Virus record (IMG/VR): IMGVR_UViG_3300007513_000009
Length of the DNA: 64,000 bases
From: a virus
Direction: 5' to 3' (one strand)
A program made the translations under genes and the position numbers. A model generated the notes under the pieces. It had not been told where the DNA came from. It worked only from the letters and a program-made list of their open reading frames with translations, and made no database searches. Numbering within the stretch: the stretch's first letter is position 1; each line of letters begins with the position of its first letter. This document shows positions 1-35,389 of the stretch, one piece after another.

Positions 1-1086
1 GTTTGGCAAGCACATCAAGCAGGTGATGATCCAGAAGATCCAAAAGGCGGGAAAGGAGCTTGGCAAGCAATAAATAAAGATACTGGCAATCAAGATTCTT
101 TTGGTGATGATAAAGAAAGCGCAGTGGCTTATGCAAAAGGTGGAGATGATAGTGCTGGTGGAGATGATGGCAAAGAACCTACAACACAGACAAAAATAGC
201 CGCTGATCCATTTCAACATGGACCTGACGGGCCGCGGTCACACATGGCCAATCAACCAGATCCGGATTATAAACCTAAACAAAAGTATGGTGTGAATGCT
301 GAACCAAAACCTGAACCAAAACCTGAACCTAAAAAACTTTCTTGGCCAGACCAAAGAGATGCAAATAGAAAAGCTACAGGTAATGCACATCTATCTAAAG
401 ACCCTGCGGATATGTCTTCTGAAGAACACGATCAACTTGAAAAGCATTTGGATCATCACTCAAGAATGTTACAGCACCAAGCGATGTCATCATACGACCC
501 AAATTTGCGTAATATGGTGGCTGAACCATCTCAAGAGGAATGGGATGAACTGAAATCTGCAAGGAGTGCACTTAAAAAAGCAAAAGATTCTGGTGGTGAA
601 GAACCAAGTGGTGAACCAGAAGGTTCTTCTCCAAAGGAACAAGCTAAAGCTGAGTTAGAGGATTATAATGAACCAGATGATGTTGCTGGTTGGTTAGAAG
701 ATCATCAAGATAAACTTGGTAAAAAATTTACTCGTCAATTGGGGAATATGTATTCTGATATGGAAGATTCATTTATGGATGCTACCCAAGGAGGAAATGA
801 TGATGCTTGGGATGATTTTGATGAAAAGTTAGAAAATTTTAAGAAAGAGGCTGGTAGGATGATGGATAAGCATGTACCAGAAGAACCAAGCGGTGGTGCT
901 GGCGGAATGATGGGTGCTCTTGGACATAGAGGTTCTCAATATAGAACTGGCAAAGAATTAAAAGGTGAAATTACAGTTAACGGAAAAAAATATCGCCCAA
1001 TAAAGGAATCTAAAGAAAAGAAACCAATAAAAAAACATAGGTTACAAGAACAATATGAGAGATTTTTTAATAGAATGGTTATTTAA
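1..1086 (+). CDS. Acidic low-complexity phage protein, 5'-truncated (possible head/internal protein)
   Basis: Frame 1 is open from base 1, so the track start at 124 is probably internal; D/E/G-rich; directly upstream of the head module. Confidence 0.55.
   Translation, partial: VWQAHQAGDDPEDPKGGKGAWQAINKDTGNQDSFGDDKESAVAYAKGGDDSAGGDDGKEPTTQTKIAADPFQHGPDGPRSHMANQPDPDYKPKQKYGVNAEPKPEPKPEPKKLSWPDQRDANRKATGNAHLSKDPADMSSEEHDQLEKHLDHHSRMLQHQAMSSYDPNLRNMVAEPSQEEWDELKSARSALKKAKDSGGEEPSGEPEGSSPKEQAKAELEDYNEPDDVAGWLEDHQDKLGKKFTRQLGNMYSDMEDSFMDATQGGNDDAWDDFDEKLENFKKEAGRMMDKHVPEEPSGGAGGMMGALGHRGSQYRTGKELKGEITVNGKKYRPIKESKEKKPIKKHRLQEQYERFFNRMVI
301..333 (+). repeat. Coding tandem repeat GAACCAAAACCT x2.75 (EPKP linker)
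   Basis: Read directly from sequence. Confidence 0.8.
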
Positions 1087-1378
1087 TTATATATTAATAT
1101 CATTAGTTTTATGGCAAATCGGATTAATATTACATCTTTTACTAAAAAATCATTATGGGAAACACCCTAAAGAAATTTATAAAACTATTTCAACACCATC
1201 AGCTGTTGAGGTTGAGTTACCAAAAACAAAAAAAGATATTGGGGTTGTAGACGTGAATATAAAGAAACATATTGTTGCAGAAAAACCAACAGATTTTAAA
1301 ATAGATACGGATGAAACAATAAAAGGGTCTGTTAAATTACAAAAAGACAAATTAAAAGAACTTAGGAGTGGGTTATGA
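1055..1378 (+). CDS. Small protein with N-terminal transmembrane helix, coupled to the actin-like gene
   Basis: Hydrophobic aa ~4-30; ATGA overlap with 1375; C-terminus resembles that of 7530..7973. Confidence 0.7.
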   Translation: MRDFLIEWLFNYILISLVLWQIGLILHLLLKNHYGKHPKEIYKTISTPSAVEVELPKTKKDIGVVDVNIKKHIVAEKPTDFKIDTDETIKGSVKLQKDKLKELRSGL

Positions 1379-2427
1379 GTGTAGGTATAGATTGTGGTAC
1401 ATCATTTTATATTGCAGCAAGAGAAAAGAAAATTAAAAAACAAAGAAATGCTTTTTTAACTGTTGAGGGGGAATCTTCACAAGTAAAGAGAATGTTAAAA
1501 CGACAAAATATTCCATATGTTGAAAAGGCTAATAGAGTACATATTGTTGGTCAGCACGCTTTTAACTATGCACAGATATTCAGTACATCTCATTTAAGAC
1601 GACCAATGAAAAGTGGTTTACTGAATCCACAAGAAAATGACGCACTTCCAATATTGAATGCTATTATTGGTGAACTTTTAGGTAAAGCAAAAAAACCAAC
1701 AAAAGCTAAACCAAATAAAGAAGTTTGTGTTTATTGTATTCCTGCAAAACCAATTGATATAAAAAGAGAAGTTTCTTATCATGAAGATGTATTAAAAACA
1801 ATTATTGAACAATACGGATATGATGTAAAGAAGATAGAAGAATCTGTTGCACTTGGATATGAAGGATTAGTAGATAGTGCTTTGACGGGCGTTGCAATCT
1901 CAATGGGTGCCGGTATGTGTAATGTAGCCGTTATGTATCAAGGAATGACTGCACTTTCTTTTAGTGTTGCTCGTGGGGGTGATTGGATAGATACTAATGT
2001 TTCACAGGATACTGGAGTTTCAGAAGCAAAAGTAACTAATATAAAAGAAGTTTCGAATAGTTTAAATATATCAAAGTCAAAAATTGATGTATATGACGAG
2101 GGTACTGAAGAAGCTAATATATTAATTGCGGTTCGTTCTTATTATGCTGCTCTTATTAACTATTTATTAACGAACTTAAAAGTTCAATTTGAGGGTATTG
2201 AAAATGTACCTAATTTTCCTGAACCTGTACCAATAGTTATAGGTGGGGGAACTGCTTTGGTGGAAGGATTTTTAGATGTGTTCAATGAACAATTTGATCA
2301 AAATGATTTCCCTATACCAATTTCAGAAATAGTATTAATTGAGGATGCTCACACAGCTGTTTCAAGAGGATGTTTGTCAGAAGCTATGTTAGTAGAAGAG
2401 GAAAATGAAGAAAGTAACGGTGAATGA
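1375..2427 (+). CDS. Actin-fold ATPase (volactin/MreB/MamK-like)
   Basis: Phosphate-1 GIDCGTS, phosphate-2 ISMGAGMCN, ARGGDWID, adenosine motif IVIGGGTA, C-terminal AVSRG. Confidence 0.85.
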   Translation: MSVGIDCGTSFYIAAREKKIKKQRNAFLTVEGESSQVKRMLKRQNIPYVEKANRVHIVGQHAFNYAQIFSTSHLRRPMKSGLLNPQENDALPILNAIIGELLGKAKKPTKAKPNKEVCVYCIPAKPIDIKREVSYHEDVLKTIIEQYGYDVKKIEESVALGYEGLVDSALTGVAISMGAGMCNVAVMYQGMTALSFSVARGGDWIDTNVSQDTGVSEAKVTNIKEVSNSLNISKSKIDVYDEGTEEANILIAVRSYYAALINYLLTNLKVQFEGIENVPNFPEPVPIVIGGGTALVEGFLDVFNEQFDQNDFPIPISEIVLIEDAHTAVSRGCLSEAMLVEEENEESNGE

Positions 2428-2674
2428 AATACAAAAGTGGTTAAAAAGTTTGGAAGAATTTCGCTATAGAAAAATACCTATTGTTGATTCTAGAAGAATT
2501 GCTTCATTTGTAAATAATGGTTTAAATGAGACAGATTTACCTGTTTCATTACAAAAGAAATGGGAACATGCTAAATATTCTAAAGAAAAAGGTTTAGCAG
2601 ATAGATTTATCAAACAAAAGATAAGTGATAAATTAATTGCAACAGAAAATATAAAGTATAAAGATTTTTTTTAA
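2405..2674 (+). CDS. Hypothetical protein
   Basis: 89 aa ORF filling the gap between the actin and bS21 genes. Confidence 0.65.
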   Translation: MKKVTVNEIQKWLKSLEEFRYRKIPIVDSRRIASFVNNGLNETDLPVSLQKKWEHAKYSKEKGLADRFIKQKISDKLIATENIKYKDFF

Positions 2675-2917
2675 GTGATAGAAGACAAAGAAAGTAAAAA
2701 AATAAAAAATTGTAGATTATATGTAACTGCACGAGATGGTGAACAGGTTGAATCTATGATAAGAAGATTTAAAAAGAATGTAAAAATATCTGGATTGATG
2801 CAAGAGATTAACGAAAGAAGTTTTTATGAAAAACCATCTGTAATAAAACGAAGAAAAAAGAAAAGTTTAGTTTTAAGAAAAAAGCATTTAAATTTATCAA
2901 ATAATAATGTTTTTTAA
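2675..2917 (+). CDS. rpsU: Ribosomal protein bS21
   Basis: GEQVESMIRRFKK...G...E...R.FYEKPSV.KRRKK matches the bS21 pattern; basic 80 aa. Confidence 0.85.
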   Translation: MIEDKESKKIKNCRLYVTARDGEQVESMIRRFKKNVKISGLMQEINERSFYEKPSVIKRRKKKSLVLRKKHLNLSNNNVF

Positions 2918-3040: not shown

Positions 3041-4117
3041 ATGTCTGATTTACTAAAAGAAGCTATTGCTGATGCAAAAGCAGTTCGTGAAACGGCGTTA
3101 GAAAATGCTAAAATAGCTCTTCAAGAAGCTTTCGCTCCACAACTCAAATCTATGTTGTCCGCCAAGTTGGCTGAAGATGATGAAGAATATGAAGAAGATC
3201 CTATGGGTGATGAAGAAGAAATGGGTGATGAAGAAGAAATGGATGCTGTAGATGCCGAAGAAATGGCACGCACTCATTCATATCGTGAAGAAGATGATGA
3301 AGAAATGGGTGAACCTGAACCAGAGATGGCTATGGGTGATGAAGAAGGTGAAGAAGAGTTTGAAGAAGAAGGTGTCATTGAAATTAATGGCATTAAGTAC
3401 GCTCCCGTAGTTTCTGAAGAAGATGAATTTACTGAAGAGTATGAAAATACTGATGAAGGTGAAGAACTTGATTTAGAAGCTGTAATTAAAGAACTTGAAC
3501 AGGAAATTGCTGAGTCGGAAAATGATGATGAAGAAAAAGAAGTAACTGAAGCAGATGACGAAAAAGATGAAGAAGTGGTATCTGAAGCAGATGATGCTGA
3601 TGATGATGAAGAAGAAAAAGACGAATCTGTTAAAGAACAATCTAGTTCATCTGGTATCGGAAAAGGTGACAATCAAGTTACATCCGCTTCCGCTTCTGAT
3701 GAAGAAGATCCTGGTAAAGGACAAGTACACGAACAGATTGACTATTTGCAATCAGAGCTTAAAGAGTATAAGGAAGCTGTCACATTTTTGCGTGATAAGC
3801 TTCATGAAGTGAATATTTTGAACGCTAAATTACTTTACACTAATAAATTGTTTAAAGAATATGCATTGACGAATGAACAGAAACTTAAAGTTGTTGAAAC
3901 CTTTGATAGAGCTCAAACAACTCGTGAAATTAAGTTAGTTTGGTCAACACTTGCAGAGTCTATGAAGAATGAAATGGTTGAAGTTAAAAATCATAGTGTT
4001 CAAGAAGCAGCTAGTCGTAAAACTGGTTCAACTAAACCTACTTCTAGGAAAATTATCACAGAAGAAAGTGAAGTTGCATCTAGGTTTAAGAAATTAGCTG
4101 GTATTCTGAAAGATTAA
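3041..4117 (+). CDS. Prohead core/scaffold protein (gp22-like role)
   Basis: Very acidic coiled-coil protein directly upstream of the major capsid gene; GGAG RBS; ends RFKKLAGILKD. Confidence 0.75.
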   Translation: MSDLLKEAIADAKAVRETALENAKIALQEAFAPQLKSMLSAKLAEDDEEYEEDPMGDEEEMGDEEEMDAVDAEEMARTHSYREEDDEEMGEPEPEMAMGDEEGEEEFEEEGVIEINGIKYAPVVSEEDEFTEEYENTDEGEELDLEAVIKELEQEIAESENDDEEKEVTEADDEKDEEVVSEADDADDDEEEKDESVKEQSSSSGIGKGDNQVTSASASDEEDPGKGQVHEQIDYLQSELKEYKEAVTFLRDKLHEVNILNAKLLYTNKLFKEYALTNEQKLKVVETFDRAQTTREIKLVWSTLAESMKNEMVEVKNHSVQEAASRKTGSTKPTSRKIITEESEVASRFKKLAGILKD

Positions 4118-4138: not shown

Positions 4139-5758
4139 ATGAGTAATTATGTAAACGAATCTCTTCTTGATGCTTCCCCTATAAAGAAGCAAAAGGAAGA
4201 GGCCTCAAAACTCGTGGTCAAATGGGAAAAATCTGGACTATTAGAAGGAATGGATAATGAGTGGCAACGCTCTGGTATGGCAGTATTGCTAGAAAACCAG
4301 GCACGTCAGTTGATTTCTGAGAATTCTATGACATCCCCTAACGCCGGTGCAGGTGTGGGTGATGAAGAATGGTCCGGTGTTGCACTACCTTTGGTAAGAC
4401 GAGTATTTGGTAACATCGTTGCACAGGAATTAGTTTCTGTACAACCGATGAACTTACCTTCCGGTCTTGTATTCTACCTTGATTTCAAATATGGAACTGC
4501 GGTAGGTGGAAGAACTGAGGGTGATGCCATTCATGGTAAAACTGGTCCTAATTCACCATCTGGGTCATCCGGTCCTTATGGAGAAGGTGGATTCTATGGT
4601 GTAGGAAAATATGGCTATTCTGATGGTAGTGCATCAGTTGCAGAGCTAACATTCTCAAATCTTGCAACAGCATCTTTTAAAGATGTTGATTTTGATTCAG
4701 AGTTGTCTGCTAGTAGTCTTGGTACAACTCAACTTTGGACAGTAGATGTTGCTATCACTACTTTAGTACGACCAGATACTGCAGCTGTAAGAGCTTGGGG
4801 TATTACTGGTGGTGCTAATAATGCTGTGAATATGCCACAATTTAATAAGATTCTGCCTAATGGAAAACTACAGATGATAGTATCTGCTTCAGATTCTGCT
4901 GATGCTGATGGTGCTTGGGATGTTGAATATCCAAAACAACCTGATCAAGCAACTCGTGGTGATTTTGAAGATCGTGCGGGTGATGCTACATCAGATACGT
5001 TGAATATTCCTGAAGTCAATTTGGAACTTCGGTCTTTACCGATTGTTGCTAAAACCAGAAAGCTGAAAGCTGTATGGTCGCCTGAATTGGCTCAAGACCT
5101 TAACGCATACCATTCAATCGATGCTGAAGCTGAATTGACATCTATGTTGAGTGATTACATTTCGATGGAAATCGATTTGGAAATCCTTGATATGCTTGTT
5201 AATGATGCTGTAACTGTCGATTACTGGAATGCTAAAGTTGGACAGGACTATGATGCTGCAACTGAAGGTTTCGTAGATGGTACTTTTTATGGTACTCGCT
5301 TCGAATGGTATCAAACACTTGTTGCTAAAATCCAAAAAGTATCAAACGAAATTCATCGTTTGACACTTCGTGGTGGTGCTAACTTTGTTGTTGTTTCACC
5401 TAAAGTTGCCACAATCCTTGAATCACTTCCTGGATATATGTCGCAACCTGGTGATGGTGATGCCGCTGCTAAGCAGTTTTCAATGGGTATTTCTAAAGTC
5501 GGTCAAGCCGCTGGAAGATTCACAGTTTATAAGAACCCTTACATGACTGAAAACCAAATCTTGGTTGGATTCCGTGGAAGTAATTTCTTAGAAACAGGTG
5601 CTGTCTACAGTCCTTATGTACCGCTTATCACAACTCCGTTGGTGTATGATCCTTCCGATTTTACTCCACGTAAAGGTGTGATGACGCGTTATGCTAAGAA
5701 GATGATTCGTCCTGAGTTTTATGCTTTGATTAAGTGTTCTGGTTTAGATACGCTTTAA
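4139..5758 (+). CDS. Major capsid protein, T4 gp23-like
   Basis: LLENQ, PLVRR, VQPMNLPSGLVF, AKTRKLKAVWSPELAQDL, YSPYVPL, FTPRKGVMTRY motifs. Confidence 0.95.
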   Translation: MSNYVNESLLDASPIKKQKEEASKLVVKWEKSGLLEGMDNEWQRSGMAVLLENQARQLISENSMTSPNAGAGVGDEEWSGVALPLVRRVFGNIVAQELVSVQPMNLPSGLVFYLDFKYGTAVGGRTEGDAIHGKTGPNSPSGSSGPYGEGGFYGVGKYGYSDGSASVAELTFSNLATASFKDVDFDSELSASSLGTTQLWTVDVAITTLVRPDTAAVRAWGITGGANNAVNMPQFNKILPNGKLQMIVSASDSADADGAWDVEYPKQPDQATRGDFEDRAGDATSDTLNIPEVNLELRSLPIVAKTRKLKAVWSPELAQDLNAYHSIDAEAELTSMLSDYISMEIDLEILDMLVNDAVTVDYWNAKVGQDYDAATEGFVDGTFYGTRFEWYQTLVAKIQKVSNEIHRLTLRGGANFVVVSPKVATILESLPGYMSQPGDGDAAAKQFSMGISKVGQAAGRFTVYKNPYMTENQILVGFRGSNFLETGAVYSPYVPLITTPLVYDPSDFTPRKGVMTRYAKKMIRPEFYALIKCSGLDTL

Positions 5759-5785
5759 TCTAGAGTTTAAACTCTAAATAACCTG

Positions 5786-5816
5786 AAAAAGGGGAAGCTT
5801 AGGTTTCCCCTTTTTT
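5786..5816 (+). terminator. Rho-independent terminator after the capsid gene
   Basis: GGGGAAGC-TTAG-GTTTCCCC stem-loop followed by T6 and preceded by A5. Confidence 0.85.
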
Positions 5817-5857
5817 GTTTTTATTATCTTAATATTTATAGGTAGGAGAAAATGTAA

Positions 5858-7529: not shown

Positions 7530-7973
7530 ATGTATCAGTTAGGAAAAGATGGTAAGCAAGAACCGAAAAGTCTTGTAAGGGATGATTACGAACATCCATT
7601 AGTGAAAATGGCAATTGAAAAAATAGAAAAAGAATTATGGGTTAATGAAGAAACTGGGGAGATTGTTCTTGGTCAAGGTTCATTACAACCACATCAATTA
7701 AATCAAAAGGTTGGTACACCACCAATCGATGATAGTGCCAGTAAAATGGACGGTAAGATGGATGAAATACTTGATCTATTAAAAACAAAAAATATTTATG
7801 ATGAATCAAATAATTCTATAGAGAGTAATGGTGAGTTAGAAGTAGTTGATGTGGATGTAAAAAAACAGATAGCTATAAATAAAGTTTCTACTGATGCATT
7901 GGAATCTGAAGAGTTTGATAATACAATTGATAATAAGTTAGATAAATTGAGAAAGTTAAGAAATGGCAATTAA
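7530..7973 (+). CDS. Hypothetical protein sharing a C-terminal motif with 1055..1378
   Basis: VVDVDVKKQI...DKLRKLRNG versus VVDVNIKKHI...DKLKELRSG. Confidence 0.65.
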   Translation: MYQLGKDGKQEPKSLVRDDYEHPLVKMAIEKIEKELWVNEETGEIVLGQGSLQPHQLNQKVGTPPIDDSASKMDGKMDEILDLLKTKNIYDESNNSIESNGELEVVDVDVKKQIAINKVSTDALESEEFDNTIDNKLDKLRKLRNGN

Positions 7974-13186: not shown

Positions 13187-15427
13187 ATGGCTAATGAATC
13201 ACAAAAAGAATTAAAAAAATTACTTAGAGAGATTCAAGACGATCAGTTAAAAATTACAGAAAATCAAGCACGCTATAATAATCAAGGTAAATTGGGTGTA
13301 GAGGCTTCAAAGGAATTAGTTAAATTAAAGAAAAGAGAAGCAGATTTAGAAGATTATATTGCTAGTGTAAAAGAAAAGCAGGCGGCTACATCTGATGATA
13401 TAGGGTTATCATTAGTTCAACAATTTAAAACTGCTAAACTTATTGCTGGGGCAGATAAAGCTCGAACAAATTTACTGAAAAAACAACAAACATCATTAGG
13501 TGATATAGCAGCTCAATTAGTAAAAGGAAATGTTGCTGAATCATTAGCTTTACTTACTGGAAGAAAGGTATTACAAGCCACCAAAGAAAGAGTTGATTTG
13601 CATGACGATTTACAGGCTGGTCGAAAAGAAATGGCAGGTTTTGATCAATTGAGTGGTGTACAACAATTAAAGCTGAGGGAATTGTTGAAGGGTGTGAATG
13701 ATGGTTTGTATCAAAAAGCGGATATTCAGGCTCAAATTAATGAAATTGAAGATGAGAACGGAAGAAAGATTGAAGGTCTTGGTCAGGCACATTTTGATCT
13801 GCTTGAAGCGGTTGAAAAGGAAGCACTTGCTCAAAGCGAAGTGACGGAGAAGATGTTGGCCTTCAATAAAGCATTAGGGCTAGCAACTTTAGGTTTTGCA
13901 CCAATAATTGCAATGCTTATTTCTTTTAGTGGTACAGTAGATGAAATTGGAAAGAAATTTGGTAGTTTAGTTGGATATAGTGATAATTTTAAAGATAATT
14001 TATTAGAATCGCAAGTAGAAGTAAGTAAAATTGGTGGTAGTATAGAGGATGTTGCTTCTATAACAAGTACATTGGCTTCAGATTTTGGAGTTACTTTGCA
14101 TGAGGCTTCCAAATTATCTGCTACAATATTTGATACAAGTAAAGCAATCGGCTTATCAACTGATGAGGCTGCAAAGTTAATCGGTAATTTCATGCAACTT
14201 AGTAATCTCACTTCAGATGAAGCAGAATATTTGGCAGAGAGTACTTTTCAATTAGCTAGACAAAGTGGAGTTGCTCCATCTGTTGTAATGCAAGATATAG
14301 CTGGTTCTACCGAAGCTATTGCTAAGTTTACAAAGGATGGTGGTAATAATATTGCTGAAGCTGCTGTGCAGGCTAGAAGGATGGGATTATCATTAGATAC
14401 TGCTGCAAAAATTGCTGAAGGTTTATTGGATTTCGAAAGTTCTGTAGCTGCTGAAGTGGAAGCTTCGGTATTGTTGGGTAGGGAATTAAATTATCAAAAA
14501 GCTAGGGAATTGGCACTTAGTAATGATATTGCTGGTGCTACTAGAGAAATAGTAAGCCAATTGGGTTCAGAGGAAGAATTTAATAATTTAAATTTAATAC
14601 AAAGAGAAGCATTGGCTAAGTCTATTGGAGTTAGTTCCGCAGAGTTAGCTAAGATGGTTGATCAAACAGAGAAGTTGACATTAGCTGGTGCTTTAGCTAC
14701 AAATAGTTTTGGAGATTTATTAGGAGAGGAAGGACTTTCTAATTTAGCCGTTTTGACTGGTCAAATAAAATCACTTGGTGTTGAACTTACAAATACATTT
14801 GGTCCTATTTTAAATAGTATTATTCCAATAGTGACATCAGTATTTGGTGTGTTTAATGATTTAGTGGGTGCTTTAGATGAAATGGGTTGGTTGTTACCAA
14901 TGGTGGGTGCTGCTCTCGGATTTTTGGCTGGAAAGTTAATCATAGCTGCTAAAGCCGCTTTTACAGAGGCTTATGTGAAAGGAGTAGGATCACTAATTGC
15001 TGCACTCAAACATCCAGCACTCTGGATCCCTGCTATAATCGGTTTTGGTGGTATGATGGCAGCACAAGCAGCGAAGGCAAAATCTTTTCATAACTTGGGT
15101 GAGACATCTTATGCTCAAGCAGTTTCCCCAACTGCTAATGTTGATATAGAAGGTGGTTCAGCAGATCCTGAAATTATTATGAAAGAAAAATCATTATTAA
15201 GTATTGCAGATGATAATGTTGAACCAACTTTAGCTCCAAACTTTGGAAGAGAGAGTGCTATGCAAAAGTCATTTGGATTAACAAAATCCGAATTTGCTGA
15301 CGTTTTTGACAATAGTTTGCTTAAATTTGCTGGAGCCTTTGAACTTAAAAATGAAATATCACATGACAATACACAAATATCTATAACTAATAAACTTGCA
15401 CATGGTACACCGAGGAATTTAGTATAA
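13187..15427 (+). CDS. Tape measure protein
   Basis: Long A/L/G-rich helical protein after the chaperone, hydrophobic segments near the C-terminus. Confidence 0.8.
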   Translation: MANESQKELKKLLREIQDDQLKITENQARYNNQGKLGVEASKELVKLKKREADLEDYIASVKEKQAATSDDIGLSLVQQFKTAKLIAGADKARTNLLKKQQTSLGDIAAQLVKGNVAESLALLTGRKVLQATKERVDLHDDLQAGRKEMAGFDQLSGVQQLKLRELLKGVNDGLYQKADIQAQINEIEDENGRKIEGLGQAHFDLLEAVEKEALAQSEVTEKMLAFNKALGLATLGFAPIIAMLISFSGTVDEIGKKFGSLVGYSDNFKDNLLESQVEVSKIGGSIEDVASITSTLASDFGVTLHEASKLSATIFDTSKAIGLSTDEAAKLIGNFMQLSNLTSDEAEYLAESTFQLARQSGVAPSVVMQDIAGSTEAIAKFTKDGGNNIAEAAVQARRMGLSLDTAAKIAEGLLDFESSVAAEVEASVLLGRELNYQKARELALSNDIAGATREIVSQLGSEEEFNNLNLIQREALAKSIGVSSAELAKMVDQTEKLTLAGALATNSFGDLLGEEGLSNLAVLTGQIKSLGVELTNTFGPILNSIIPIVTSVFGVFNDLVGALDEMGWLLPMVGAALGFLAGKLIIAAKAAFTEAYVKGVGSLIAALKHPALWIPAIIGFGGMMAAQAAKAKSFHNLGETSYAQAVSPTANVDIEGGSADPEIIMKEKSLLSIADDNVEPTLAPNFGRESAMQKSFGLTKSEFADVFDNSLLKFAGAFELKNEISHDNTQISITNKLAHGTPRNLV

Positions 15428-25911: not shown

Positions 25912-27021
25912 ATGGTAAGTAAAACTGAAAATCGTGATAATTTAGCAACTGTTATAGCGGATGAATTAAATAAACAATCTAAGACACACCAGGTTGCTTA
26001 TTTTTTAGATGGGGTGCAAGAAACACCAACTGATGTCACGGATTGGATTTCTACAGGTTCTACTTTATTGGATTTGGCTGTATCAAATAAACCACTTGGT
26101 GGATTGGCTGCTGGAAGAATAACAGAATTAAATGGACTTGAAGGTAGTGGTAAATCTTTGATTGGAGCACATGCTCTTGCATCTACTCAAAAGAAAGATG
26201 GACTTGCTGTTTATATAGATACTGAATCTTCTGTTTCATCTGAATTTTTACAAGCAATTGGTGTAGATACAGAGAGTATGTTATATATTCATTTAGAAAC
26301 CGTTGAAGAAATATTTGATACAATAGAAACAATTATTACAAAAATAAGAGAATCAAGTAAAGATAAATTAGTCACTATATTAGTTGATAGTTTAGCAGCT
26401 GCTTCCACTAAGATGGAAATGGATGCCGACTATGATAAAGATGGTTGGGCTACATCAAAGGCAATTATTTTATCTAAGGCTATGAGAAAAGTAACTCAGA
26501 TGATTGCTCGTCAAAAAGTGTGTTTGATATTTACTAATCAACTTCGACAAAAACTTGGTGTAATGTTTGGAGACCCTTGGACTACAAGTGGTGGAAAAGC
26601 ATTACCATTTCATGCATCTACTCGTGTAAGATTAAAGAATGTTGGACAGATAAAAGATACCAAAAAAAATACTGTTGGTATTAAGATTAGGGCACAAGTC
26701 ATTAAGAATCGATTAGGTCCACCTTTGAGAAGTGCTGACTTTCAACTGTACTTTGATAAAGGTATTGATGATTTTGGTAGTTGGTTGGGTATATTGAAAG
26801 ATCATAAATTACTCAAACAGGCTGGTGCTTGGTATACATTTGAAGACCAAGATGGAAAAGAACATAAGTTCCAATCTAAAGATTGGGGTTCTTTGATGGC
26901 TGATGTAGATACACAAAAATATGTATATAATTTGATATGTGATAAAGTAATACTAAAATACGATTCTGCTAAACTCGGTATCGATGATGTGTCTACTTCA
27001 GATGAACTTGTAGATGAGTAA
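25912..27021 (+). CDS. recA: RecA/UvsX recombinase
   Basis: ISTGS..LD, Walker A GLEGSGKS, VDSLAA, FTNQLR, GGKALPFHASTR, KNRLGPP. Confidence 0.92.
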   Translation: MVSKTENRDNLATVIADELNKQSKTHQVAYFLDGVQETPTDVTDWISTGSTLLDLAVSNKPLGGLAAGRITELNGLEGSGKSLIGAHALASTQKKDGLAVYIDTESSVSSEFLQAIGVDTESMLYIHLETVEEIFDTIETIITKIRESSKDKLVTILVDSLAAASTKMEMDADYDKDGWATSKAIILSKAMRKVTQMIARQKVCLIFTNQLRQKLGVMFGDPWTTSGGKALPFHASTRVRLKNVGQIKDTKKNTVGIKIRAQVIKNRLGPPLRSADFQLYFDKGIDDFGSWLGILKDHKLLKQAGAWYTFEDQDGKEHKFQSKDWGSLMADVDTQKYVYNLICDKVILKYDSAKLGIDDVSTSDELVDE

Positions 27022-32854: not shown

Positions 32855-35389
32855 ATGTATCAGAATATTTGGTCTGAGAAAAGAGCGAATAATCAAGTTG
32901 AAGTTCACTTATGGGATGATGTAGCTGGTTATCAGAATTTTATATTTAAGAATTATGCCTATGTAAAAGATGGAGGTGGTCAATATCGCTCCATTTATGG
33001 TGATAAGTTAAAAAAAATAAATTATTGGTCAGAAGAAGATTTTAAAACCGGTAAAGTTTTTGAGTCTGATATACCATTGGATACTCGCATTTTAATGGAT
33101 AGATATCCTGATTCTGATGAACCATCCAAAGATCATGTTGAATTATATTTTGATATTGAGGTTGAAGTTACAGATGGATTTCCCCTGCCGGAGGAAGCAA
33201 AGAATAAAATTACTTCTGTCGCACTTTATAATAACATTGATGAAGAATATAAAGTTTATGTATTAGGAAACACACAAGACTTCAGGAGTGAAGCTAAAAA
33301 TTTATCGATTTCAAAAAACAATGTAAGAATTTTTGATTCGGAGTATGAATTATTACAAGCATTGTTGAAGTATTGGGTTGAAATAAAACCAACAATAATT
33401 ACGGGGTGGAATATAGATAAATTTGATGTTCCTTATCTATATAATAGGATGACTCAGTTTTTGGGAATGGATATGGCTAATGCTCTTTCACCAATAGGTA
33501 AAGTTGTTTATAATCAGAATAAAAAGAGATATAGGATAGCTGGTGTTAGTTCGTTAGATTATTTGGAGTTGTATAAGAAATTTACTTTTATAAGTCGATC
33601 TAGTTATCGATTGGATTATATAGGTCAGATAGAAGTTGGTATGGGTAAGGTTGAGTATGAAGGTACATTAGACCAATTGTTAGAAAATAACATTGAAAAG
33701 TTTATTGAATATAACTTAGTTGATGTTAAGATTATTGTAGCATTAGAGAAGAAGTTAAAATTAATTGATTTGGCTAAAGCTGTATCTCATATGGGTAGAA
33801 TACCATATGAAGAAGTATATTTTAGTTCTCGATATATTGAAGGTGCCATGTTAACCTATTTGAAAAGTCTCAACTTAGTTGCTCCAAGTAAAAGATATGA
33901 TGTGAGTTATGATAATTCTCGCGTTGGGTTTAGTGGTGCTTATGTGAAGGATCCTAATCCTGGTAAATATGAATGGGTGTTTGATTTGGATTTAACTTCT
34001 ATGTATCCATCTGTTATTATGTCATTGAATATATCACCTGAAACAAAAATTGGAAGATTAAATGGTTGGGATGCTGAAGAATTTTTGAGAGGGGATGAAA
34101 AAACTTATACAGTAAAAAAGGGGAAGAAAGTCATTCGTAGATTTAGTACTGGTGAGTTGAAAGATTTTTTAAATAAGAATAAGGTATCAATTTCTTCTAA
34201 TGGAGTGTTATATCATTTAGATAGAAAAGGTGTTATACCAGCAATACTTGAAAAGTGGTTTAATGAAAGAGTTGAATACAGAGGATTGGTTAAGAAATAT
34301 AGTAAAGATGGTAATAATGAATTACATGATTATTTTGATAGAAGGCAATATGTCCAAAAGATTCTTTTGAATAGTTTTTATGGTGTATTGGGGTTACCAG
34401 TATTTAGATTTTATGATATTGATAATGCTGAAGCTACTACTACAACTGGTGTTACATTGATTCAATTTACAGAGAAAATAGCTAATTATTATTATAATAA
34501 AATTTTAAAAACAAATGAAGATTATTGTATATATACTGATACAGATTCGGTTTTTTATTCTGCTATTCCATTGATTAACAAAAGATTTCCTGATGCTGAT
34601 TTTGGTGATGTAAAGTTTATGACAAAACAGATTTTGGATATCGCTAGTGAAGTGCAAGATTATATTAATAAATCTTATGATTATTTTTCAAGTAAATTTT
34701 TGAATATTAAGGAAGAACATCGGTTTGACATTAAACAAGAGGTTATTGCTAAGAGTGCTTTTTGGGTAACTAAAAAACGATACGGTCAATGGATTATCAA
34801 TGATGGTGGTACTACATGTGAGAAACTTGATGTAAAGGGATTAGATATTGTTAGAAGTTCTTTCCCACCAGCATTTCAGAAGTTTATGACAAATATATTG
34901 AAAGCTATTCTTCATGATATTGATAAGGAAAAGATTGATAATTTCATATTAGGTTTTAAGAAGAAGTTAGATACTAATGAAATTATTGACATATCGTTAC
35001 CAAGTGGTGTAAAGGGGATTAAGAAGTATTCTTATAAATCAAATAAAGGTGATATCTTTACAAAGATGAAATCTGGAGCTCCAGTACATGTAAAAGCATC
35101 GGTATCTTATAATGATTTATTGAGACATTTTAATGCTAATCATTTGGAACCAATTAGAAATCATAGTAAAATTAAATGGGTATATTTAAAAAGTAATCCA
35201 TTTCATTTAGATACTATTGCATATAAGGGGTATGATGATCCAGATGAGATTATGGATTTTATATCTAAATATATAGATAGGGATAAATTATTTGATAGGG
35301 CATTAACAAAGAAAATAAAAATGTTTTACGATGCTTTGAAGTGGGATATGCCCGTAGATAAACAAAATACAGTAGAAAGATTTTTTTAG
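32855..35389 (+). CDS. Family B DNA polymerase (gp43-like)
   Basis: Exo DIEVE, GWNIDKFD, YNLVDV; Pol DLTSMYPS, KILLNSFYG, YTDTDS, KKRY. Confidence 0.95.
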   Translation: MYQNIWSEKRANNQVEVHLWDDVAGYQNFIFKNYAYVKDGGGQYRSIYGDKLKKINYWSEEDFKTGKVFESDIPLDTRILMDRYPDSDEPSKDHVELYFDIEVEVTDGFPLPEEAKNKITSVALYNNIDEEYKVYVLGNTQDFRSEAKNLSISKNNVRIFDSEYELLQALLKYWVEIKPTIITGWNIDKFDVPYLYNRMTQFLGMDMANALSPIGKVVYNQNKKRYRIAGVSSLDYLELYKKFTFISRSSYRLDYIGQIEVGMGKVEYEGTLDQLLENNIEKFIEYNLVDVKIIVALEKKLKLIDLAKAVSHMGRIPYEEVYFSSRYIEGAMLTYLKSLNLVAPSKRYDVSYDNSRVGFSGAYVKDPNPGKYEWVFDLDLTSMYPSVIMSLNISPETKIGRLNGWDAEEFLRGDEKTYTVKKGKKVIRRFSTGELKDFLNKNKVSISSNGVLYHLDRKGVIPAILEKWFNERVEYRGLVKKYSKDGNNELHDYFDRRQYVQKILLNSFYGVLGLPVFRFYDIDNAEATTTTGVTLIQFTEKIANYYYNKILKTNEDYCIYTDTDSVFYSAIPLINKRFPDADFGDVKFMTKQILDIASEVQDYINKSYDYFSSKFLNIKEEHRFDIKQEVIAKSAFWVTKKRYGQWIINDGGTTCEKLDVKGLDIVRSSFPPAFQKFMTNILKAILHDIDKEKIDNFILGFKKKLDTNEIIDISLPSGVKGIKKYSYKSNKGDIFTKMKSGAPVHVKASVSYNDLLRHFNANHLEPIRNHSKIKWVYLKSNPFHLDTIAYKGYDDPDEIMDFISKYIDRDKLFDRALTKKIKMFYDALKWDMPVDKQNTVERFF

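Follow-up and report, generated by a model that had tools for sequence, protein, structure and literature searches.

The window analysed here is a stretch of 64,000 nucleotides from the IMG/VR virus record IMGVR_UViG_3300007513_000009, corresponding to bases 67242-131241 (minus strand) of a linear record of 131,241 bases whose completeness is put at 70% by CheckV; position 1 of the window is the end of that contig. Close to this end, at 1375-2427 on the plus strand, lies a gene for an actin-fold ATPase of the volactin family, referred to below as the actin, and it is this gene, along with the small proteins that accompany it, that we describe. The open reading frame (ORF) that an earlier note had proposed at this place, from the letters and their translations, appears exactly so in the ORF listing, with an ATG start and a product of 350 amino acids. 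By direct reading, a Shine-Dalgarno motif (AGGAG, 1365-1369, plus strand) stands five nucleotides ahead of the ATG, within the end of the preceding gene. This gene (1055-1378, plus strand), recognized from its sequence and from a family alignment, encodes a protein of 107 amino acids with a single transmembrane helix, called here the adaptor, and its TGA stop overlaps the actin start as ATGA. Further downstream, at 7530-7973 on the same strand, orf147 encodes a soluble protein of 147 amino acids whose last 45 or so residues are homologous to the tail of the adaptor.

The actin is a divergent, unambiguous member of the volactin family. The Pfam model Volactin (PF25216) matches it with 231.6 bits and an E-value of 2.2e-68 (gathering cut-off 35), in an alignment that runs end to end, from residues 1 to 337 of the protein and over all 321 positions of the profile, and a repeat profile search of the genome returned 231.2 bits. 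Haloarchaeal proteins score 437-466 bits with the same model and those of Planctomycetota 273-278, and it is because the phage protein lies below both that we call it divergent. Among 14 control genomes, only that of Haloferax volcanii passed the cut-off. The six segments in which the earlier note had seen a resemblance to haloarchaeal volactin (QRNAF, VG..A.N.A.IF, RRPM..G.L, PA.PID....YH, TG..IS.GAGM.NV and FS.ARGGDWID) are all present in the window protein upon alignment, as they are in the proteins of Haloarcula, Natrinema and Halogeometricum, and none of them is found in MreB of Escherichia coli. The model MreB_Mbl (PF06723) gives only a partial match to residues 50-210, with 26.7 bits, under its cut-off of 27; FtsA gives 17.4 bits, and the ParM, StbA and Alp families gave no Pfam match at E-values up to 0.1. 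In PHROGs, the actin and the adaptor are without a family, and so are orf89, orf147, orf158 and the gp15-like protein, which are introduced below; the similar clusters of the ESM Atlas are automatically labelled 'Volactin domain-containing' and are mostly viral. Pfam, the structural comparison and the tree agree in identifying a volactin-type actin, and not an MreB, ParM, FtsA, Hsp70 or sugar kinase, as had been proposed. We likewise rejected the possibilities of a wrongly called ORF and of a motif match due to chance.

The AlphaFold2 model of the actin, built on an alignment of 37 rows, reaches a predicted local distance difference test value (pLDDT) of 93 and a predicted template-modelling score (pTM) of 0.92. 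Foldseek places MreB first among the solved structures of the PDB (E-value 7e-14, template-modelling score 0.62-0.66), followed by MamK (0.67), BeeR and the eukaryotic actins, so that the nearest solved structures are polymerising actins, and the nucleotide-binding motifs are in their places. Four of them fit the family consensus, namely phosphate-1 (D6-x-G8-T9), connect-1 (E156), adenosine (G291-G292-G-T) and connect-2 (G332). The phosphate-2 motif reads S-M-G-A-G-M-C-N, where MreB has D-I-G-G-G-T-T-E; this form, S-x-G-x-G-M-x-N, or more narrowly S-x-G-A/G-G-M-x-N, recurs across the volactins and is a trait of the family rather than a defect of the window copy. The claim that all actin ATPase motifs are intact is hence right when judged by the volactin consensus, and does not hold against the canonical motif of actin and MreB, from which phosphate-2 differs. 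Two inserts were also observed. A Lys/Pro-rich one, AKKPTKAKPNK (window 1675-1707, residues 101-111), occurs in no other aligned sequence, and another of about 18 amino acids, ISKSKIDVYDEGTEEANI (about 2062-2115, residues 230-247), is found, among the sequences aligned, only in those of the marine phage clade described below; the confidence of the model falls to 68-80 at these inserts.

The departure of phosphate-2 from the form of actin and MreB would suit a different kind of protein, that is, an actin-fold ATPase that does not polymerise and acts as an Hsp70- or EutJ-like chaperone of the prohead or the scaffold, or is packaged into the head. The gene does lie among those for the prohead core and the scaffold, the best match of a sequence search of the PDB is EutJ (E-value 0.085, with nothing significant in that search), and the viral structure library BFVD returned mostly viral Hsp70 homologues. 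These last matches, however, are at most 16% identical and mirror the content of that library, which holds no close viral structure, and in the PDB the top matches are filament-forming actins, with neither Hsp70 nor sugar kinases, the two folds that the earlier note had named as speaking against it, among the first 50 Foldseek matches or in Pfam. Moreover, the 350 amino acids comprise the actin core only, with no substrate-binding domain, the N-terminus opens directly at the phosphate-1 strand with no capsid-targeting leader, and polymerisation in vivo is known for the only member of the family characterised so far (PMC10869688). We consider such a chaperone or packaged protein very improbable.

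Relatives of the actin are numerous. A phmmer search of 1.84 billion representatives found 1004 clusters at E-values up to 1e-3 and 273 at E-values up to 1e-30, many of the relatives being proteins of 500-1160 amino acids with the domain at one end. Some depart further from a simple architecture: proteins of about 730 amino acids (P0123, P0126 and P0128) carry tandem volactin domains, with hidden Markov model matches at 25-315 and 346-674 in P0123, and in about 12 relatives of roughly 530-800 amino acids (P0144, P0161, P0162, P0173, P0227-P0229, P0250, P0251, P0255 and P0263 among them) the domain is interrupted close to phosphate-2 by some 320 inserted amino acids, which look like an intein placed in the most conserved of the ATPase motifs. 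Among 72,556 plasmids, the sole matches were five haloarchaeal megaplasmids, with 32-33% identity and E-values of about 1e-50. Their paralogues stand in for the H. volcanii protein VolA in our comparisons, with loci on Halogeometricum pHBOR01 (L162), Haloarcula pHMA411 (L163) and a Natrinema plasmid (L164); one megaplasmid gene of the volactin family is annotated as 'cell division protein FtsA', and one of the three loci also holds an archaea-specific SMC-related gene. A genome scan gave 410 relatives, of which the best 80 are almost all chromosomal genes of Planctomycetota with 37-41% identity, a predominance that is biased, given that the scan saw only genomes encoding ARGGDWID. In a sample of 151 Planctomycetota genomes, 62 passed the PF25216 cut-off, and no paper on a planctomycete volactin cytoskeleton was found in the literature.

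A maximum-likelihood tree of 145 rows (LG+G4, with branch support from the Shimodaira-Hasegawa-like approximate likelihood ratio test, SH-aLRT) had MreB and FtsA as its only outgroups. All 143 family rows stand apart from MreB and FtsA (SH-aLRT 97), and the sequences of the marine phage clade to which the window belongs are monophyletic with a support of 100. Their sisters are two representatives (support 99), both on phage-like contigs, and the phage group shares a clade of 54 rows with the planctomycete type (SH-aLRT 96), while the haloarchaeal proteins lie elsewhere in the tree and two huge phages occupy two further places. The outgroup branches are long and joined to each other, which makes the root of the family and the direction of any transfer unreliable. 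The earlier note had seen a resemblance to haloarchaeal volactin; this was correct as to the family, but in the tree the volactins of planctomycetes are the cellular proteins closest to the phage actin. One sister contig that bears a volactin (L175) additionally encodes, at 13272-15134 on the minus strand, a protein of 620 amino acids matching HSP70 and MreB_Mbl, and so holds two actin-fold ATPases.

The virus itself is placed in the Far-T4 group on account of its closest cultured capsid relatives, which are Microcystis phage Mel-JY01 (51% identity), the Flavobacterium 'immuto' phages (49%) and Rhodothermus phage RM378 (38%). The window has a G+C content of about 31% and a GC skew that stays positive along its length, and all its large ORFs are on the plus strand. 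Its virion genes resemble those of T4, with a Gp23 capsid protein, a tail sheath, a gp19 tube, T4 baseplate proteins and a weak gp15-like match, and they are followed by genes for RecA, DnaB, a class II ribonucleotide reductase, PolB and a gp44-like clamp loader. A megablast search with 12 kb gave no match in 50,697 phage records. The clade is one of uncultured, abundant Far-T4-like marine myoviruses with genomes of roughly 190 kb, as estimated from 131 kb at 70% completeness.

Within this clade the actin is held in a constant position. A search of 5.8 billion proteins gave 1007 matches, the top 120 of which all share 78% identity or more and stem largely from metagenomes of ENA and JGI, and 117 stretches of IMG/VR encode the actin, of which 80 were kept, with 69-88% identity. 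Across 81 loci, the gene is on the same strand as, and 1-4 kb upstream of, a scaffold-like gene and gp23. In one of them (L078), a gene for a Peptidase_S77 protein, i.e., a prohead protease of the T4 gp21 type, is found 5 kb upstream of the actin. With the protease on one side and the scaffold-like gene and gp23 on the other, the actin lies inside the head-morphogenesis block; the position at the head of the capsid module, which the earlier note had read from this one genome and suggested comparing in related phages, is therefore a fixed order in more than 80 related viral contigs.

The actin is also under stronger purifying selection than the capsid protein. In seven pairwise comparisons, its amino-acid identity was equal to or above that of gp23 every time, and the ratio of non-synonymous to synonymous substitution rates (dN/dS) was 0.10-0.16 for the actin, 0.15-0.28 for gp23 and 0.21-0.33 for the scaffold-like gene, dS being near saturation for the distant pairs. 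When loci were sampled starting from gp23 instead, all 5 clade loci whose upstream flank reached 5 kb or more (gp23 identity 53-74%) contained the actin, which was nearby in none of the 32 loci of sister lineages (gp23 identity about 50-53%). Exactly one PF25216 match was found in each of five contigs of the clade, and none in five long contigs from sister lineages, two of which are complete genomes (one of 157 kb with terminal repeats and one of 238 kb). The actin is thus a single-copy core gene that marks this clade, and not a general gene of Far-T4 phages. Among the 50,697 phage records, a tblastn search with the actin found two huge uncultured phages only, the nearest cultured capsid relatives giving no match. 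A host gene captured recently was weighed and excluded, given the deep conservation in the clade, the dN/dS of about 0.1 and the fact that no cellular relative above 42% identity was found; with the same synteny in more than 80 viral contigs and no near-identical cellular gene found, the gene is phage-encoded, as the earlier note had it.

The second constant element of the locus is the adaptor. Its N-terminus is a hydrophobic transmembrane helix, LFNYILISLVLWQIGLILHLLL, directly followed by a Lys-rich linker, and its C-terminus is a conserved module of about 45 amino acids, GVVDVNIKKHI...KGSVKLQKDKLKELRSGL, the last 20 or so residues of the protein being KLQKDKLKELRSGL. By the positive-inside rule, the Lys-rich stretch directly after the helix would leave the C-terminus in the cytoplasm. 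An ORF with a transmembrane helix and this tail module precedes the actin in 52 of the 52 clade loci with enough flank, and in most of them it abuts the actin, with a gap of 0-7 nucleotides or an overlap of four. Such a pairing extends to the sister phages, in which the volactins P0271 and P0134 likewise follow a gene for a small transmembrane protein, one of these proteins ending in ...DVLRNLRK.

The same tail module recurs once more in the virus. A hidden Markov model of the module, run over the 131-kb contig, found exactly two ORFs, the adaptor and orf147, and hhalign aligned the two families with a probability of 97.2% and an E-value of 3.7e-11 over 45 columns. The gene for orf147 follows those for orf393, which has a PHROG match to head-tail adaptors, and orf158, whose positions correspond to those of gp13 and gp14, and it precedes the gp15-like and sheath genes; it is hence encoded among the genes of the neck. 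As to what the tail may bind, a complex prediction of the actin with adaptor residues 58-107 scored 0.46, with a best control of 0.01, the runs agreeing in at least 35% of contacts and the partner having a pLDDT of at least 44. Of 80 solved complexes, 58 reached the mark used in this procedure, as did 2 of 110 mismatched pairs, and scores of 0.60 or less reached it in 7 of the 80 solved complexes and in both passing mismatches, so the prediction weakly suggests that the tail contacts the actin.

An actin with an adjacent adaptor whose tail may bind it recalls the layout of ParR and ParM, and raises the possibility of filaments that, like those of ParM/ParR or AlpC/AlpA, act on phage DNA, either pushing it or keeping it at a defined site while it is replicated or ready for packaging. 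The phage or prophage actin AlpC works together with its adaptor in viral DNA replication (PMC4446434), and the dynamics of volactin have been likened to those of ParM (PMC10869688). Nevertheless, no DNA-binding domain could be recognised in either of the two tail-bearing proteins, which have no match in Pfam or PHROGs, one of them is a membrane protein, and the actin is located inside the head genes, about 23 kb away from the replication block (RecA at 25912, PolB at 32855). A role in positioning or segregating DNA seems to us rather improbable on these grounds.

The genes between the actin and gp23 complete the picture of the locus. As the earlier note had indicated, two genes separate the actin from the scaffold-like gene. 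The first is orf89 (2405-2674, plus strand), a protein of 89 amino acids with no Pfam or PHROG family that is kept with the actin in 75 of 81 loci, downstream of it in the subclade of the window and upstream of the adaptor in others, and that may be a third part of the actin system. The second encodes ribosomal protein bS21 (2675-2917, plus strand; PF01165, E-value 4.3e-14; phrog_21469), which in the window stands between the actin and the scaffold-like gene and was detected in 46 of 81 related loci; its nearest ESM Atlas clusters are all viral and give no clue to the host. After them come the acidic scaffold-like protein in the gp22 position (3041-4117, plus strand), assigned from its position and composition with no family match and present in 75 of 81 loci, and the major capsid protein of the T4 Gp23 family (4139-5758, plus strand; PF07068, E-value 1.5e-75; phrog_138). 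Upstream of the adaptor, window positions 1-1086 hold a large acidic ORF rich in Lys, Glu and Pro that is truncated at the contig end and shares 32 nucleotides with the adaptor gene; its homologue in another locus of the clade (L003) has 572 amino acids and no Pfam family, and the protein may be a prohead core or internal protein. Two tRNA-Gly(UCC) genes, at contig positions 34254-34326 and 52695-52766, are the only tRNA genes that aragorn detected in the 131 kb, and none lies in the window.

Directly after the gp23 stop, at 5784-5817 on the plus strand, a terminator-like hairpin with a stem of 15 pairs and a run of T is the sole strong one on that strand between positions 1 and 9500. No strong terminator was found between position 1 and 5758, and there are two weak terminator consensus matches inside gp23. 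Given this layout, the genes for the adaptor, the actin, orf89, S21, the scaffold-like protein and gp23 look like one unit. As for the promoters, the T4 late-promoter motif TATAAATA occurs 13 times against an expected 16.6, without enrichment, and is absent upstream of the operon, and sigma-70-like sites are fewer than in shuffled sequences, so that no promoter was assigned.

Taking all this together, we give roughly even odds (a probability of about 0.5) to the view that the virus builds a membrane-tethered actin filament that acts during virion assembly. According to this proposal, the actin, fixed in the head-morphogenesis block, would be made together with the head genes, since no strong terminator intervenes before the one after gp23, and probably late in infection. 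It would then polymerise with ATP into dynamic filaments, as volactin does in H. volcanii. On the cytoplasmic side of the inner membrane, the adaptor would tether or nucleate these filaments, docking onto the actin with its C-terminal tail, which is conserved and rich in Lys, and orf147, soluble and predicted to be mostly disordered, would use the same tail to couple the filaments to a second partner, plausibly the assembling heads or necks. In this way, the system would organise the site where virions are built or joined.

A membrane anchor would also suit a filament associated with the cell cortex, and hence a takeover of the shape or envelope of the host, where the tethered actin replaces or overrides an MreB-type system of the cell, so as to keep or enlarge the shape of the cell or to direct envelope synthesis during infection, and has no direct role in virion assembly. 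This explanation can draw on the one characterised role of volactin, which is the rod-to-disk transition in cell shape of H. volcanii (PMC10869688), and on MreB being the closest solved fold. However, volactin filaments in that archaeon are dynamic, run through the cytoplasm and reach the membrane with their tips only, unlike those of MreB (PMC10869688), the actin of the virus lies inside the head-morphogenesis block and not among early or host-takeover genes, and the neck genes include one for another protein that bears the tail of the adaptor. We therefore hold a takeover of host shape to be unlikely, if less so than a role in DNA positioning, and consider that the adaptor, with its start/stop overlap, and the tail protein of the neck genes lean towards the assembly-linked version of the late-expressed filament for which the earlier note had offered two roles, positioning assembly sites or reshaping the host.

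Several observations weigh against a filament that serves virion assembly, and they are the reason why our estimate is no higher. In phages, the place of a gene says little about its function. The AlphaFold2 model of orf147 is of low confidence (pLDDT 54.7, pTM 0.15), so that a contact of this protein with heads or necks is conjectural. The link to the neck may not be universal either, since a tail protein follows the orf158 homologue in 15 of the 28 loci with flank. Complex predictions that pass as weakly as that of the actin and the adaptor are more often wrong than right unless there is a strong prior. The phosphate-2 motif lacks the acidic residue and the Thr of MreB and actin, and the ATPase kinetics may differ as a result. 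Finally, related Far-T4 phages, two complete genomes among them, have no volactin, which means that its function is inessential to this type of virion.

The proposal of an assembly-linked filament can be taken one step further, to a machine of three parts in which the membrane anchor and the protein of the neck module compete for, or co-occupy, one docking site on the actin, and filaments rooted in the membrane capture maturing heads or move them to the site where tails are joined. We regard this extension as speculative and, taken whole, doubtful. Were it true, it would amount to a bacterial virion assembly line based on actin, a counterpart of the tubulin spindle of PhuZ.

Phage-built cytoskeletons are known mainly from the jumbo-phage tubulin PhuZ and from one prophage actin, AlpC. 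Our full-text literature searches found volactin in haloarchaeal papers only, the key paper making no mention of phages, and for phage actins they found only AlpC, Alp-type proteins and the viractins of giant viruses; no paper on phage volactins with membrane adaptors was found in the literature searched. New in the present case are the type of genome, a Far-T4-like marine one, the position between protease and scaffold, and the second tail-bearing protein among the neck genes. The family of this actin has been characterised only once, in a haloarchaeon, and here it provides a core gene of a widespread group of marine myoviruses, matched by more than 1000 protein clusters (at 90% identity) in metagenomes, more conserved than the capsid protein and accompanied by a small docking module on one membrane protein and one protein of the neck region. 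If both the filaments and their dockings are real, a viral actin could organise virion assembly in space in T4-like phages of ordinary size. The system is small (about 350, 107 and 147 amino acids), enough to be rebuilt in E. coli or in vitro, and the span of its family, from haloarchaea and Planctomycetota to many phages, bears on how actin-like filaments have spread between domains of life.

Among the known systems, the haloarchaeal one is the best understood of its family. As in VolA (HVO_2015) and its haloarchaeal paralogues, the phage protein belongs to PF25216, whose profile it matches from end to end, the size is similar and the gene follows that of a membrane protein, and the segments QRN.F, RRPM..G, PA.PID....YH, S.GAGM.N and FS.ARGGDWID are shared. 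Contrary to them, the phage actin, 33-34% identical to the haloarchaeal proteins, falls on another branch of the tree, with planctomycete and phage sequences, and its gene is viral and lies inside the head-assembly genes, so that the role of VolA in shape change is not transferable. The partners differ as well. The haloarchaeal volactin genes stand directly after a gene for a CdpA-like DUF7139 protein with four transmembrane helices in 3 of 3 loci, and in H. volcanii this CdpA-like gene is HVO_2016, which adjoins HVO_2015, with volactin enriched in a pull-down of CdpA (PMC12126565). No such DUF7139 neighbour was found in the phage, whose neighbour is the protein of 107 amino acids with one transmembrane helix and no family. 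The two membrane neighbours are thus analogues and not homologues, and they characterise the locus without serving to define the protein family.

The volactin-domain proteins of Planctomycetota are the nearest cellular relatives, with 37-42% identity, and they differ in being chromosomal, in having often 1-4 copies per genome, in forming often the C-terminal part of proteins of 500-1160 amino acids, and in a phosphate-2 motif that is often S-C-G-G-G-M, compared to S-M-G-A-G-M in the phage. The volactins of other uncultured large or huge phages (e.g., LR745208 and LR756511) likewise have their genes in the midst of virion genes, in most cases beside that of a small partner. These phage proteins are 30-35% identical to the actin, occupy separate places in the tree and have other partners, such as a coiled-coil protein in one locus (L172), whereas the gene described here is set between the protease and scaffold regions of a Far-T4-like marine myovirus.

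As in ParM/ParR and AlpC/AlpA, the actin of a mobile element is encoded next to an adaptor, whose C-terminal tail is proposed to bind it. Unlike in those systems, there is no sequence match to ParM, StbA or Alp, and the adaptors have no recognisable DNA-binding domain, one of them being anchored in the membrane. MreB (with RodZ) and MamK, both bacterial actins whose filaments are associated with membranes or organelles, offer the closest solved structures, at 15-18% identity in the Foldseek alignments and 22% to E. coli MreB in a direct alignment; contrary to MreB, the phage actin has no N-terminal amphipathic helix, starting instead at the phosphate-1 strand, and differs in phosphate-2. Lastly, the PhuZ/TubZ spindles of nucleus-forming jumbo phages, which provide a dynamic cytoskeleton by which infected cells and their capsid traffic are organised (PMC4244570, PMC9067925), are phage-encoded cytoskeletons as the present one would be, and differ from it in belonging to the tubulin superfamily.

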